Notes: generated by a model from the letters alone, not told the origin. DNA of 64,000 nucleotides from Deltaproteobacteria bacterium (GCA_023265625.1 JAHFST010000003.1:168482-232481), one strand, 5' to 3'; numbered from the stretch's first letter, positions 31,970 through 37,808 are shown. Numbers and translations: made by a program.

Positions 31970-33505
31970 ATGGAATTCTGGGGATTTGAAGGTCGAGGGA
32001 CCCGGTTGCCGGGGGATGGGTTTGGGTTGTTTGTGGATGTGGCGGTCACCTATCAGGGGAAAGATGGACTAACTCAAACTAAGGAAATTAAAAATCTCTC
32101 AGTTAACAAAGGGGACAATGACAAGATTGACGAACAAGAAGTGCAACAGGCTTTAGCAGCGAATAAGGATTTTTTGGCGGCATTGATGGATGATACTGAT
32201 GGTAAAATAGAAGTTAAATGGAAAGATGGAAAAGAAGATGACAATTTCAAATGGGATGCCTCTAAGCTTAAGACGAGCAAAGAAGGTGATGCTTCCAAGG
32301 GTGATGATAGGGCCCTGACAACCAAGGAAGATGCCCTCAAAAGTGTGGCCCGAGAGCTTGGAGTTGATAGCAGTAAATTGAAACATGCCGATAAGGATAG
32401 TTTTGATGCCTTGCTAGGCGAGGTTGAAAAAAAGATTAGAGGGAGCAAGGAAGTTCTCACGAGTGATGCTAGCAGTCTAGGTGTTGCAGCTTTAAATTTG
32501 GACACTGCAACTGCCGCAGAAGTTGATACTGCGGTCACAACCGCAAAGGGTACTAAGCCTACTAAGGCAGATGCGGCATACGATGCCAAAGTTGCCAAAC
32601 TGGATGCCTTTAGTACTGCCGCAAAAGCATTTATTGCCCAAAGAGATACTATCAAAACAAACCTTGCCGCTGTGAGAGACCCTAGCGTTTCTGCCCTCTT
32701 CTCCAGCATTGCTGACCGCAAATCAAGTTCCGGTGATAAACAAGGGTTGGATGCCCTGGGGGATAAAAGCAATAAGGCTGCTAAGTCAGGTGAAGTCAGC
32801 GCCGCCTCATCGGGTGGTTTTAGCTTCAACTTCGGCCCCGGTGGGATTGGGTTTTCCTACGGCTCGGCGAGTGCCAATGGTTCCGGGCCGGTGGCGGCGA
32901 GCAATATGGTGGGAGGCGGTGGGACGCCTTTTGGGGGTTATGGGATGGGTGGAGGAGTTGGGGGCGGTGGGTTTATGGGTGGGGCCAGTAGTGTTGGAGG
33001 CTTTGGCCAAGGCTTTGGTGGTGGCACTGGATTCGACGGCGGACTTGGCTTTGGCAATTTTTTACAAACCTTTGGTCAGACCTCCGATCTCAAGTCCCAG
33101 GCCCGCAAGATGGAGATGATGCTGGAGCAGCTCTTGCACTCACTGATGGGCGGGAATGTCGATGCGATCTCGAGCATCCTGAATCTCGAGGCCGGTCGCG
33201 CCAAGATCACGCTGATCGGGGCGGCCTACATGATGGTGAAGGCGATGAAATCGTATCAGACGCAACAGGACGAGACCGTGGCCAAGATGGAAAAGCTCGT
33301 CGGGGATGGGATGAGTGCGGGTAATGCCCAGAACCAATTTCAGACGATGCAGAACAAGATGAACGAGTACAGCATGACTCGGCAGATGATCGTGAACAAT
33401 CTCCGGGACGTGAAGACGATGGAAGAAGAGATCGAGAATCAGGCGAAGTCTTACTATGACGTGAAGGGCCAGCATCTGCGCGGTCTGTCACATTGGAACG
33501 CGTAG
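31970..33505 (+). CDS. MEFWGFE-family protein Q (Gly-rich middle, conserved C-terminal helical domain)
   Basis: The start is taken at MEFWGFE (RBS GGAGG 5 nt upstream), not the listed 31952; the C-terminal about 130 aa are homologous to the C-terminus of R. Confidence 0.6.
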   Translation: MEFWGFEGRGTRLPGDGFGLFVDVAVTYQGKDGLTQTKEIKNLSVNKGDNDKIDEQEVQQALAANKDFLAALMDDTDGKIEVKWKDGKEDDNFKWDASKLKTSKEGDASKGDDRALTTKEDALKSVARELGVDSSKLKHADKDSFDALLGEVEKKIRGSKEVLTSDASSLGVAALNLDTATAAEVDTAVTTAKGTKPTKADAAYDAKVAKLDAFSTAAKAFIAQRDTIKTNLAAVRDPSVSALFSSIADRKSSSGDKQGLDALGDKSNKAAKSGEVSAASSGGFSFNFGPGGIGFSYGSASANGSGPVAASNMVGGGGTPFGGYGMGGGVGGGGFMGGASSVGGFGQGFGGGTGFDGGLGFGNFLQTFGQTSDLKSQARKMEMMLEQLLHSLMGGNVDAISSILNLEAGRAKITLIGAAYMMVKAMKSYQTQQDETVAKMEKLVGDGMSAGNAQNQFQTMQNKMNEYSMTRQMIVNNLRDVKTMEEEIENQAKSYYDVKGQHLRGLSHWNA

Positions 33506-33539
33506 TTTTAAGTTTAACAAATGTAAAAGGAGACAATTT

Positions 33540-35393
33540 ATGGAACTCTGGGGATACGAAATGACGAAGAATGCGGTGAAGGGCGGGGAGCTGGGCCTGC
33601 AAGCGGCTCCTGTGACGGCACCGGTGGTGACGGATACGAATGACGCCTCGGCGGGGAGTGACTCGATTGGGTTTATGCCCACGGCAGACCTGAGCCGTCG
33701 GAGCGAGAAAGAACTCCGCAAACATGAGGTCTCCACCTGGGATGAACCCGCCCCGCGTGCCCCAGAGACGCACAGTGCACCGCGTGCGGATGTGAATGCG
33801 CAAAAGCGTGGCGCCGGCAAGGCCCATCAGCGCCACGAACTTGTCAAAGAAAAGCGTGCCCAATTGTTGAGTCGGCTGGAAAAGGCCACCTTGCTATTGG
33901 CCCGAGTGAGACAGGATGGCAAGGGGAATAGCCAGGAGTCTGGCAAGGCGTCCGGCAAAGAGTCTAACAAAACGTCCGGCAAAGGCCAGACGCAGTCTGC
34001 TCAAACCAAGGCCGAGAAAAAGATCCTGGCGACCCTGCGTGCCTCCCTGGAGGGTCGGGAGGCCAAGCAGGACATTCGGCAGTTGGCGAGCAAGACCTTG
34101 TCGGATCTGAAAAAGACCACGCAAGAATTAGTCAAAAAAAATCAGTTTTCGGGGGAGACGCGGGCAGGGCTGGAACATGCCAAGACTGAGCTCACGGCAT
34201 CGCTCGGGGAGTTTACCAACTCCCTGGAGCATGCCTCGCTCGGTTCTGAGGAGACCTTGACCCCGGCGGCTCAACCTAGCGAAGTCGCGACATCGGGTAG
34301 CACGGTTGAGACCCGGACTGCAGGAAGCACTCCGGAGGCGGTGCTCCCAGCCCATGCGGAGGTCGTGCAAAAATTGACCCAGGAGCTGCAGGCCTTCGGT
34401 CCCGCGACGACGGTGACACCGGAGAATCTCGAGACGGCGCATCAAGAGATCAAGACCCAGTGCAAGCAGCAGTTGGCGGGACTGACCCAGGTTTTTGAGG
34501 GTCTCAAAGAGGCCCAGGCCAAGCTCAAGTCAATGCTGCCGGCCGCCAGTGCCTCGACCACAGATGAACAACGACCCGAGGCGAAGGTCCAGAAATTGCT
34601 CGAGACCCAGCTCAAGGAGGTCTCGGAAAAGGTGGCGACCATCCGGGCGTCTTTGACCAAGTTGGACAAGATCGAGAATCAAATCTTACGGATGAAGAGT
34701 TACAAGGAATTGAAGGATTCGGTGGAGAAGGATACGACCCCGACCCTTCAGGCGGCTTCTAGCAGTGACTCGGCCGCGCATGAGGTGTTGACCCTGCTCA
34801 AGGCGGCCTCCGCAGGTGAGGAACCTCAACAGGGGACATCCGCAACGGCCAGTGCGACACCGAGTTTTGGCGGTTCGCAGTATCTGTCAGCGGCTTCGGG
34901 TGGGAATGTTCAGGCGGCTTCCGGTGGCGCGGGTGATGGGAGCGCCCTGTTGTCGATCGCCAGCGGCAATAATTTTATCAGCGACCAAAAGAAGGAAAAG
35001 GTTAAAATGGATAAGCTCATCCAAGATATCCTCTTGGCCATTCAATCCGGCAATGTGGATGCCATCAGCGATGCCTTGATCGTGATGGGCTTACAATCCA
35101 AACGGACCCTGCTGGGAGTGGCCTCTCACGTGGTCAAGGCCCTGCAGGTCTACGATCAACAATTGCAGAAGGTATCCGAGGATATGGGTAAAATTACCGG
35201 CACGGAGAAGAACGCGAATGCCACGATGCAAAAACTGAGCCTCGATATGAGCACCTACAGCATGGGTCGGACCGCGCTGGTGAATTCATTGCGTGATGTC
35301 CAGACCATGAACGAAGAAATTGATAACGTTGCGAACAGCTGGCTGAACATTGTGGGTCAGCAGAAACGACAGCTCTCTAGGTTCCAAAGTTAA
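33540..35393 (+). CDS. MEFWGFE-family protein R (starts MELWGYE; Ala/Thr/Gln-rich coiled coil; C-terminal domain shared with Q)
   Basis: C-terminus ...SGNVDAISDALIVMGLQSKRTLLGVASHVVKALQVYDQQ...NSLRDVQTMNEEIDN aligns with Q ...GGNVDAISSILNLEAGRAKITLIGAAYMMVKAMKSYQTQ...NNLRDVKTMEEEIEN. Confidence 0.6.
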   Translation: MELWGYEMTKNAVKGGELGLQAAPVTAPVVTDTNDASAGSDSIGFMPTADLSRRSEKELRKHEVSTWDEPAPRAPETHSAPRADVNAQKRGAGKAHQRHELVKEKRAQLLSRLEKATLLLARVRQDGKGNSQESGKASGKESNKTSGKGQTQSAQTKAEKKILATLRASLEGREAKQDIRQLASKTLSDLKKTTQELVKKNQFSGETRAGLEHAKTELTASLGEFTNSLEHASLGSEETLTPAAQPSEVATSGSTVETRTAGSTPEAVLPAHAEVVQKLTQELQAFGPATTVTPENLETAHQEIKTQCKQQLAGLTQVFEGLKEAQAKLKSMLPAASASTTDEQRPEAKVQKLLETQLKEVSEKVATIRASLTKLDKIENQILRMKSYKELKDSVEKDTTPTLQAASSSDSAAHEVLTLLKAASAGEEPQQGTSATASATPSFGGSQYLSAASGGNVQAASGGAGDGSALLSIASGNNFISDQKKEKVKMDKLIQDILLAIQSGNVDAISDALIVMGLQSKRTLLGVASHVVKALQVYDQQLQKVSEDMGKITGTEKNANATMQKLSLDMSTYSMGRTALVNSLRDVQTMNEEIDNVANSWLNIVGQQKRQLSRFQS

Positions 35394-37121: not shown

Positions 37122-37262
37122 TAGGTTGCCGATAAAGGCCCATCTGCGTCGTTGCCCATTCAGCCCCTCCCTGCGACGTACATTCAGTACGTCTCAGTCG
37201 GGTCTTCACGGGCGCCTAGCAGCTGGACCTTTCTCAGCAACCTATGATAGATTAGTCATCAA

Positions 37263-37808
37263 ATGCCCTTAGACGAAACCAGAACCCGATTTTCCGAGGC
37301 CGAACGGGGCAAGATTATCGATCCCAATCCGGAACGCCGGCGCCACCTCACCGAGCTGATGCTCAAATTTGCCACGCAGAAGATCTCCCCCTCAGACCTG
37401 ATCGGGGTCTCCCGCAAGAAACTGGGCCGCTTGGCCGAGATCGGCTATCTCAAGTACCGTTACGGACGCTTTAAAGAGTCCCTGGAGATCTTTGAGACCT
37501 TGGTGGGGCTCGATTCCCGGGTGGTCTACTATCATGTGGCGCTGGGCGGGGTTTATCAGAAACTGAACCGTTTTGTCGACGCGGTGGTCGAGTACACCAA
37601 GGCCATTCGGCTCAATCCCAAAAATATCGCGCCCCATGTGAATCGGGGCGAGATCTATCTAAGACATAAAAATTTTCGCAAGGCCGCGGAGGATTTTCGC
37701 AGCGCTATTTTGCTGGATAATCAGGGAAAAAATCTCTGGGCCAATCGGGCCCGGTCGTTGGTGATTGCGCTTAAAAGGAGTTTGGAGTTACGCAAGAGGC
37801 GTTCATAA
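37263..37808 (+). CDS. TPR protein U, SycD/LcrH-like (second putative class II chaperone)
   Basis: EIGYLKYRYGRF...YYHVALGGVYQKLNRFVDAVVEY...VNRGEIYLRHKNFRKAAEDF is homologous to S over about 110 aa. Confidence 0.5.
   Translation: MPLDETRTRFSEAERGKIIDPNPERRRHLTELMLKFATQKISPSDLIGVSRKKLGRLAEIGYLKYRYGRFKESLEIFETLVGLDSRVVYYHVALGGVYQKLNRFVDAVVEYTKAIRLNPKNIAPHVNRGEIYLRHKNFRKAAEDFRSAILLDNQGKNLWANRARSLVIALKRSLELRKRRS

Follow-up and report, generated by a model that had tools for sequence, protein, structure and literature searches.

Among the closest described relatives of the system analysed here are the type III secretion systems (T3SSs) of the Myxococcota. In the sections of the literature cited here, Abby and Rocha place a secretin-less and translocon-less 'Myxo' system at the base of the non-flagellar T3SSs (PMC3459982), and the T3SS* of Myxococcus xanthus is described as having neither needle nor translocon, its effectors being unknown (PMC12075869, PMC3459982). 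What the early-branching, secretin-less Myxococcota-type machines export is a standing question, which is addressed by a gene module that we found in a 64,000-nucleotide stretch of DNA from a Deltaproteobacteria bacterium (GCA_023265625.1, JAHFST010000003.1:168482-232481; hereafter the window). The module consists of five plus-strand genes, Q, R, S, T and U, two of which (S and U) encode small tetratricopeptide repeat (TPR) proteins and three of which (Q, R and T) encode their candidate cargo. We consider it probable that this operon provides the late substrates of a non-flagellar T3SS of atypical make-up, carried by Myxococcota-like metagenome-assembled genomes (MAGs), and that its two LcrH-family chaperones serve a new family of secreted helical-hairpin proteins.

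The locus shares several traits with the Myxo T3SS as it is portrayed in those sections, namely the Deltaproteobacterial/Myxococcota context, an SctJ-type ring, genes for a sorting platform and an export apparatus, FHA, sigma54 and Ser/Thr-kinase neighbours, the lack of recognisable needle or translocon genes and a FliO homologue, FliO having been reported in non-flagellar T3SSs of Myxococcota (PMC12248157, in the part cited). It differs in that the cited parts of the Myxo T3SS papers describe no chaperone-client operons. The present lineage also differs in its G+C content of about 51% and in the size of a complete relative genome (CP064976.1, 2.75 Mb).

With regard to the chaperones, the nearest described group is class II (LcrH/SycD, PcrH, IpgC, SicA, AcrH). 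S and U resemble its members in size, in a cytoplasmic all-alpha fold of three TPRs preceded by an N-terminal helix and capped by a C-terminal one, in significant full-length profile matches, in their best structural matches and in an operon with non-enzymatic helical proteins within a T3SS locus. They differ in scoring below the curated cutoff of the family model, in an N-terminal extension of about 70 amino acids (aa) carried by S, in belonging to an apparatus that is no standard injectisome and in having neighbours without a transmembrane segment or the conserved anchor motif of class II clients. Moreover, classical class II chaperones are acidic, whereas U has an isoelectric point (pI) of about 10. 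Chaperones of class III (YscG, PscG, AscG; TIGR02508), which work with a small subunit (YscE/PscE), bind the C-terminal helix of the needle subunit in their TPR palm and thereby block premature assembly. A class III-like recognition of a hairpin by S and U is plausible, because a C-terminal helical hairpin is the only part common to the candidate clients. However, S and U showed no TIGR02508 match at E <= 0.01, no YscE-like small partner was identified, and the candidate clients measure 290-620 aa compared with about 80 aa for class III clients. Finally, the locus resembles the flagellar late-gene system, both in a FliA/WhiG sigma factor within the cluster and a substrate operon preceded by a -10 box of the GCCGATAA type, and in chaperones that, like FlgN, FliS and FliT, would be dedicated to helical, self-assembling substrates. 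In contrast to the flagellar system, the chaperones are TPR proteins and do not have the FlgN, FliS or FliT folds, the -35 element reads GCAACW and not TAAA, and no FlgM was identified.

A first-pass annotation, made from the sequence of the window, had placed five open reading frames (ORFs) on the plus strand, and all five are present: Q at 31970-33505 (511 aa; alternative start 31952), R at 33540-35393 (617 aa), S, T at 36153-37121 (322 aa, pI 4.9) and U at 37263-37808 (181 aa, strongly basic). Only the start of S needs to be moved, since the interval proposed for it, 35487-36149, is the longest ORF, with a TTG start, whereas public gene callers begin at the ATG at 35553 and give a protein of 198 aa (35553-36149). 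The paralogy proposed for S and U as small three-TPR proteins is borne out by 34% identity over 156 aa (E 4e-28), and so is their likeness to SycD/LcrH. While Pfam returned TPR_1/TPR_2 matches only, the best NCBIfam match of both proteins was TIGR02552 (LcrH_SycD), with 84.3 bits for S (E 6e-24, profile positions 3-135 of 136) and 64.6 bits for U (E 7e-18, positions 3-120 of 136), the next-best TPR models reaching merely 1e-6 to 1e-8. This model was matched by all 31 sampled members of the S/U family (best E 4e-26), among which the best non-T3SS TPR model reached 1e-11 and the SicA, SscA, SctY and SscB models matched as well. A comparison of the combined S and U family profile with SycD by hhalign gave 98.1% (E 1e-13, SycD residues 15-160), and a fold search of S, run independently, agrees with the result.

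This fold search used an AlphaFold2 (AF2) model of S with a pLDDT of 85, which shows three helix pairs and a capping helix. As the first-pass annotation had anticipated in proposing a structural comparison with SycD and PcrH, the top PDB matches in Foldseek were SycD (2vgx), PcrH (2xcc/4jl0), AcrH (3wxx) and IpgC (3gz1), with target TM-scores of 0.81-0.90 and an rmsd of about 1.9 A. The model covers S, and the fold of U is taken from its 34% identity to S. In a sequence search of the PDB, generic TPR proteins scored higher through the two central repeats, and whole-domain matches were found only to AcrH, PcrH, IpgC and SycD. Neither S nor U has a signal peptide or a transmembrane segment. Sequence, profile and fold thus agree on the homology of S and U to the class II chaperones of T3SSs, as opposed to generic TPR proteins. 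In public databases, their homologues are called 'tetratricopeptide repeat protein', 'TadD' or 'hypothetical'; these names are generic because neither S nor U reaches the curated TIGR02552 cutoff, and the generic names leave the T3SS link invisible in current annotation.

Do the candidate cargo proteins belong together as well? Q and R do share a C-terminal domain, as had been noted (about 150 aa, 37% identity, E 1e-25), and T does not stand alone, as had been assumed: a profile of the T family (12 orthologues) aligned with the Q/R domain in hhalign (96.2%, E 2e-9, 125 columns), so that the C-terminal half of T corresponds to this domain. From N- to C-terminus, Q is composed of an MEFWGFE motif, a Gly-rich linker and the helical domain; R is its paralogue through the latter. 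An additional plus-strand paralogue of 362 aa lies upstream at 29477-30565 and combines an MDFYGFE N-terminus with the C-terminal domain (BLASTP against Q E 2e-5, profile E 8e-37). The family alignment together with a low-confidence AF2 model of T suggests a short helix that bears a GNxDA motif and, after it, a long helical hairpin. When 1.84 billion representative proteins were searched by profile, the domain turned up in only 106 clusters, always at the C-terminus, and none of 103 family members (nor of an earlier set of 22) contained a Pfam domain.

Q, R and T gave no significant match to Pfam or NCBIfam models, those for translocators included. They are hydrophilic, as described before (GRAVY -0.43 to -0.55), and contain no hydrophobic segment, the highest 19-residue Kyte-Doolittle mean being 1.43 (none above 1.45); Q is free of Cys. 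Sequence profile searches of the PDB with the cargo domain returned coiled-coil and low-complexity noise only and no solved relative. The AF2 model of T, built from 5 sequences after a k-mer homologue search gave 2 matches, is all-alpha with a long C-terminal hairpin (helices 212-258 and 263-321), and Foldseek found nothing for it at E <= 0.001. The fold of T cannot be assigned, since homologues are few, the pLDDT is 47 and Foldseek found no match. Judged by their sequences, Q, R and T form one new, narrowly distributed family that is neither flagellar nor a recognisable translocon.

A second shared element sits at the N-terminus. The motif M(E/D/N)(F/L)(W/Y)G(F/Y)E is common to Q, R and the window proteins encoded at 7776-9752 and 29477-30565, and it recurs in the Q orthologues of the related loci L006, L007, L008 and L010. 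It extends to ...FV(G/D)EAFATN in two window proteins; the 7776-9752 protein has the motif without the C-terminal domain, and the motif-bearing proteins otherwise differ. The motif may be a shuffled export or chaperone-binding tag, albeit one unusual for T3SS signals. The N-terminal P/VxLxxP anchor of clients, which binds the palm of class II chaperones (PMC13466201), does not recur across the 12 T orthologues, a similar hexapeptide being found only in T of the window (PLVGDP) and in its closest homologue (PLIDAP).

The tie between the module and a T3SS comes from the genomic neighbourhood. The window opens inside a T3SS core operon, of which it contains the 3' end; the plus-strand genes were assigned by Pfam and NCBIfam as FliM-like (9-878), SctQ-C/FliN (869-1282), FliO-like (1289-1591), SctR (1578-2351), SctS (2399-2665) and SctT (2676-3497). 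The earlier statement that the module lies beside an export gate does not hold for the window itself, where sctT ends at 3497, 28 kb away, and does hold for six relatives, in which the distance from sctT is 0.2-5 kb. In three of them (L013; L017, an 816-kb contig; L018, GCA_046346885.1) the order is sctR-sctS-sctT-[C-domain protein]-[S]-[T]-[U], with the module directly after sctT; in the others (L006; L010, the complete genome CP064976.1; L012) it lies 2-5 kb from sctT, and in L012 the gap contains additional C-domain paralogues. The region that separates sctT from the module is variable and has grown to 28 kb in the window. The five-gene order is kept in 8 genome loci, and exactly two LcrH-like genes were found per locus in 12 of 12 independent loci. 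Because the module adjoins the core genes in relatives and each locus has two LcrH-like genes, we regard it as an integral terminal part of the T3SS locus. The relatives, MAGs that carry the labels Myxococcota, Deltaproteobacteria or 'uncultured Pseudomonadota', stem from uncultivated soil and water bacteria. On the minus strand, convergent with U, lie a gene for an FHA-sigma54 enhancer-binding protein (37908-39305; Pfam Sigma54_activat, FHA and HTH_8), which is a candidate regulator, and a gene for a Ser/Thr kinase with PEGA domains (39308-41557; Pfam Pkinase and PEGA); both keep this position in L003, L005, L017 and L018. Two parts of the earlier interpretation are well supported, the assignment of S and U as chaperones and the connection with type III export. 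A conserved operon that ties two T3SS chaperones to a defined protein family supplies the first concrete candidates for the exports of such machines.

What kind of apparatus is this? A metagenomic contig identical to the window (L014) extends the core operon upstream and gives the order SctJ, two small genes, a FliA/WhiG-family sigma factor (L014 1814-2644; TIGR02479, 146.6 bits), a 161-aa protein, a FliG_C-domain protein (L014 3149-4117; 41.6 bits, cutoff 23.3), SctL/FliH, the ATPase (SctN), FliJ/SctO and a FliK-like protein. The label 'flagellar-type gate' used in the first-pass annotation captures one side of this machine: the gene order is flagellar (fliG-H-I-J-K-M-N-O-P-Q-R), and a separate FliM-like protein, FliO, FliJ, a FliK-like C-terminus and the FliA-type sigma are flagellar-type genes, in addition to the FliG-like part. 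On the other side, the ring protein (318 aa) scores 94.7 bits with SctJ vs 37.8 with FliF, SctR scores 243.7 (above its cutoff of 208.6) vs 202.8 for FliP (below its cutoff of 217.5), SpaO/YscQ reaches 85.2 vs 55.0 bits for FliN, and YscL 100.3 vs 82.9 bits for FliH; the ATPase, SctS and SctT are ambiguous between flagellar and injectisome models. As the SctJ model outscores FliF and SctR passes its cutoff while FliP fails, an atypical non-flagellar T3SS with retained flagellar parts is the better description. The earlier argument that TPR chaperones are unexpected at this gate is weakened accordingly, because chaperones of the class II type are expected in a non-flagellar T3SS. A literature search on FliG, FliA or chaperones in Myxococcota T3SSs yielded nothing specific. 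Such a machine, which mixes FliG, FliM, FliO, FliK and FliA control with SctJ, SctR and LcrH-type chaperones, bears on how the classes of chaperones and the substrate hierarchies originated.

It is noteworthy that a FliG_C domain and a FliA/WhiG sigma occur inside a cluster with an SctJ-like ring, FliG being considered specific to flagella. The 161-aa protein (L014 2646-3131) ends in ...PPELLALQAGVYQIAQEMELTSKAFEQVNNAHKTVWNTNFQG and by eye looks like the C-termini of inner-rod SctI proteins; it has no Pfam or NCBIfam match. Upstream of sctJ in the related locus L021 lie a 708-aa FHA(Yop-YscD_cpl)-PEGA-TPR protein (3568-5694), which may be a PEGA-built analogue of SctD, and a 143-aa TPR protein (9407-9838).

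The conserved charges of the module suggest how chaperones and clients could be paired. In 12 loci, the TPR core of U has a pI of 9.9-10.9 and T a pI of 4.3-5.4, while S ranges over 4.9-8.7 and the Q/R-type domain lies mostly at 8-10.6. On the basis of this pattern, S likely pairs with the basic Q/R-type domain and the basic U with the acidic T, which is the pairing put forward in the first-pass annotation. The spacing between S and T is 0-6 nucleotides (nt) in all loci (3 nt in the window), and that between T and U 1-24 nt in the relatives and 141 nt in the window. C-domain paralogues number from one to five or more per locus, and the chaperones are constant at two; one chaperone probably serves several paralogues, via the shared C-terminal domain or the N-terminal tag.

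The sequence upstream of Q carries a sigma-28 (FliA)-like promoter, CAACT-N16-CCGATAA (31902-31929, plus strand). The general motif CAACW-N16-CCGATAA (<=1 mismatch) was found 9 times in the window compared with 0.56 expected matches, and 0 of 100 shuffles reached 9. Its -10 box equals the sigma-28 consensus GCCGATAA. The canonical sigma-28 spacing TAAA-N15-GCCGATAA is absent upstream of Q, the motif having GCAACW at -35, and a generic scan of the module for promoters and terminators was uninformative. Seven sites lie just 5' of plus-strand genes, namely that of Q and those at 9792-9819 (gene at 9844), 14679-14706 (14739), 15224-15251 (15297), 20609-20636 (20644), 23087-23114 (23122) and 28004-28031 (28047); a minus-strand site at 57486-57513 has no obvious ORF downstream. 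For the genes at 20644 and 23122, the spacing suggests leaderless transcripts, since the ATG follows 7 nt after the -10 box. Among related loci, L011, L012 and L017 have the motif before the module and L018 has it before the T-type gene, and in L014 it precedes a small gene that follows sctJ. The substrate genes are thus likely a late class read, in a flagellum-like manner, by the system's own FliA-type sigma, to which we assign the motif by its -10 box.

How could these components act together? According to the interpretation that we favour, S and U, cytoplasmic TPR chaperones of the LcrH/SycD family by sequence, profile and fold, would serve Q, R and T, which would be exported clients of one family defined by the C-terminal helical-hairpin domain (about 130-150 aa). 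By analogy with the chaperones of classes II and III, each chaperone would keep its client soluble, non-assembled and secretion-competent and would deliver it to the export gate, with S acting on the basic Q/R-type domain and the basic U on the acidic T if the charge pattern is a guide. The operon, preceded by the sigma-28-like motif, would be read by the FliA-type sigma of the cluster, which would link the making of substrates to the apparatus in the way known from flagellar late genes. The absence of transmembrane segments from the clients makes it likelier that they form or decorate a helical assembly outside the cell or in the periplasm, or serve as soluble effectors, than that they open a membrane pore of the YopB/YopD type.

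Several points weigh against this interpretation. S (84.3 bits) and U (64.6 bits) remain under the curated TIGR02552 cutoff of 104.8 bits, designed generic 3-TPR proteins follow close behind in the fold search of S, and the clients lack the known features of class II clients, i.e. a hydrophobic segment and a conserved P/VxLxxP anchor. The basic pI that U has is not typical of a T3SS chaperone. The pairs do not follow from gene order, and the arrangement of classical operons, with the gene of the chaperone ahead of that of the client, would combine S with T. SctV, SctU and a secretin were not seen in the DNA read, including 10 kb upstream of sctJ in a metagenomic relative, and both the secretion of Q, R and T and their binding to S and U are steps that we infer.

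Which other readings of the module have to be weighed? The TPR proteins, U above all, might mainly be regulators, with the freed chaperone acting as a co-activator or partner-switching factor, as known for IpgC with MxiE, SicA with InvF and LcrH with YopD; this would connect the FliA-type sigma or the neighbouring FHA-sigma54 activator with the activity of secretion and would be compatible with a chaperone role. Such a function would fit the conservation of U, which at 52-82% identity to its orthologues is the most conserved gene of the module and far exceeds T (22-45%), as well as the larger size of its family (513 matches vs 23 clusters for S), its strongly basic charge in 12 of 12 loci and the conserved convergent neighbours encoding a sigma54 activator and a Ser/Thr kinase. 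However, U has no DNA-binding domain, no AraC-type partner gene lies nearby, and sigma54 promoters, sought because of the adjacent activator, are not enriched in the window (36 matches vs 31.8 expected), with none upstream of Q; the basic charge of U is equally explained by its pairing with the acidic T. We therefore consider a mainly regulatory role rather unlikely. The suggestion that S and U are generic TPR scaffolds or pilotin-type (TadD-/PilW-like) proteins without a role in the secretion of their neighbours draws on the label 'Flp pilus assembly protein TadD', which JGI gives to some U homologues, and on weak matches to PilW and PrsT models. It is highly improbable in view of the missing signal peptide or lipobox in S and U, a TIGR02552 match that is better by >10 orders of magnitude in E-value and the strict synteny with T3SS core genes.

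Two further readings concern the machine as much as the cargo. LcrH/SycD-family chaperones classically share an operon with translocators, and two of them can occur in one operon (SscA and SscB in SPI-2). The profile and fold of S and U would therefore also suit an ordinary injectisome translocon operon, with Q, R and T as divergent pore formers of the YopB/YopD/IpaB/IpaC type and S and U as their class II chaperones. This is improbable for proteins whose hydropathy does not exceed 1.43, which match no Pfam or NCBIfam translocator model, whose family has no Pfam domain in any of 103 members and in which the P/VxLxxP anchor is not conserved, all the more since the apparatus is not a standard injectisome. 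Alternatively, the locus might encode a very divergent true flagellum, in which Q, R and T would be axial proteins (hook-associated or flagellin), with S and U standing in for FlgN, FliS and FliT. The flagellar gene order, the FliG_C domain (41.6 bits), the FliO, FliJ, FliK-like and FliM-like matches and the sigma-28-type -10 box before Q all speak for it, and R-type orthologues begin with MATNNQVN or MGTNINI, which by eye is faintly reminiscent of axial proteins. But the ring protein fits SctJ better than FliF (94.7 vs 37.8 bits), SctR clears its cutoff where FliP does not, and the SctQ and SctL models outscore FliN and FliH; furthermore, no Flagellin, Flg_bb_rod or FliD match was found in Q, R, T or 103 relatives, and no rod, hook or Mot genes were found in the 64-kb window or the loci read, so that a flagellum is hard to credit.

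Within the favoured interpretation of a T3SS substrate operon, the nature of the exported product deserves a separate look, as the second half of the Q/R/T domain resembles T3SS needle subunits (SctF). The family consensus ...LxGxDP..L..N..MN.YS..RQ.I.N.LRD aligns with PrgI ...KPSDPALLAAYQSKLSEYNLYRNAQSNTVKVFKD, and the T family ends in ...IIQN(F/L)(K/R), comparable to ...IIQNFR in PrgI and MxiH. The needle model PF09392, whose family has a helix-PxxP loop-helix hairpin, matched 4 of 22 family members weakly (best E 0.038). Against a needle alignment that was checked against the PDB, hhalign gave 48.5% for the Q/R profile, 51.3% for the profile of the whole family and 21% for the T profile, the last in a register about 17 residues off. 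Because the T family aligns in this different register, we do not claim homology to needle subunits; a relationship, at an hhalign probability of about one half, is a lead to follow. More tentatively still, we speculate that Q, R and T could be axial (needle- or filament-equivalent) subunits of a T3SS intermediate between flagellum and injectisome. If so, LcrH-type TPR chaperones would originally have served self-assembling helical-hairpin subunits, S and U would be living representatives of the common ancestor of the class II and class III TPR chaperones, and the 'needleless' T3SSs of the Myxococcota type would have an exported structure after all.

The 28-kb insert between sctT and the module contains large unannotated proteins, which would be candidate effectors of the same system, the sigma-28-like motif marking a probable regulon. 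The operon and this regulon together represent a candidate secretome for one such system. In addition, the insert contains a duplicated two-gene cassette (15297-18278 with 18302-19354, and 23122-25500 with 25373-26677). Its large proteins share an N-terminus of about 130 aa (MGD.D.YLNSGRT.LYPNLDHQEFG...), and both of their genes have a sigma-28-like promoter; the products of the second genes have a hydrophobic C-terminus in common (...VAKVAGL..VAGL.LFGG...NPF.DVLG). The cassettes, in which Pfam recognised no domain, are candidate pairs of effector and partner. Another substrate-chaperone pair could be formed by a Gly-rich basic protein (9844-10152; 102 aa, pI 10.9, no Cys) with a sigma-28-like promoter and an acidic protein (10149-10475; 108 aa, pI 4.6) whose gene overlaps the former; neither has a Pfam match.

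The insert also accommodates small genes of mobile or defence type (10497-14561, 19360-20099, 26753-27907 and 30617-31179). Pfam identified an RlaP-family gene (11874-12665) and two AAA_14/DUF4143 ATPases, while inspection by eye alone suggested nucleotidyltransferase/HEPN-like pairs, a PIN-like gene accompanied by an HTH gene, and a DUF4258-like gene accompanied by one resembling a zinc-ribbon antitoxin. Further downstream in the window, PrkA, DUF444 and SpoVR-like genes lie in a row (47057-51738) and represent a conserved three-gene module of stress or starvation, unrelated to the chaperone module.

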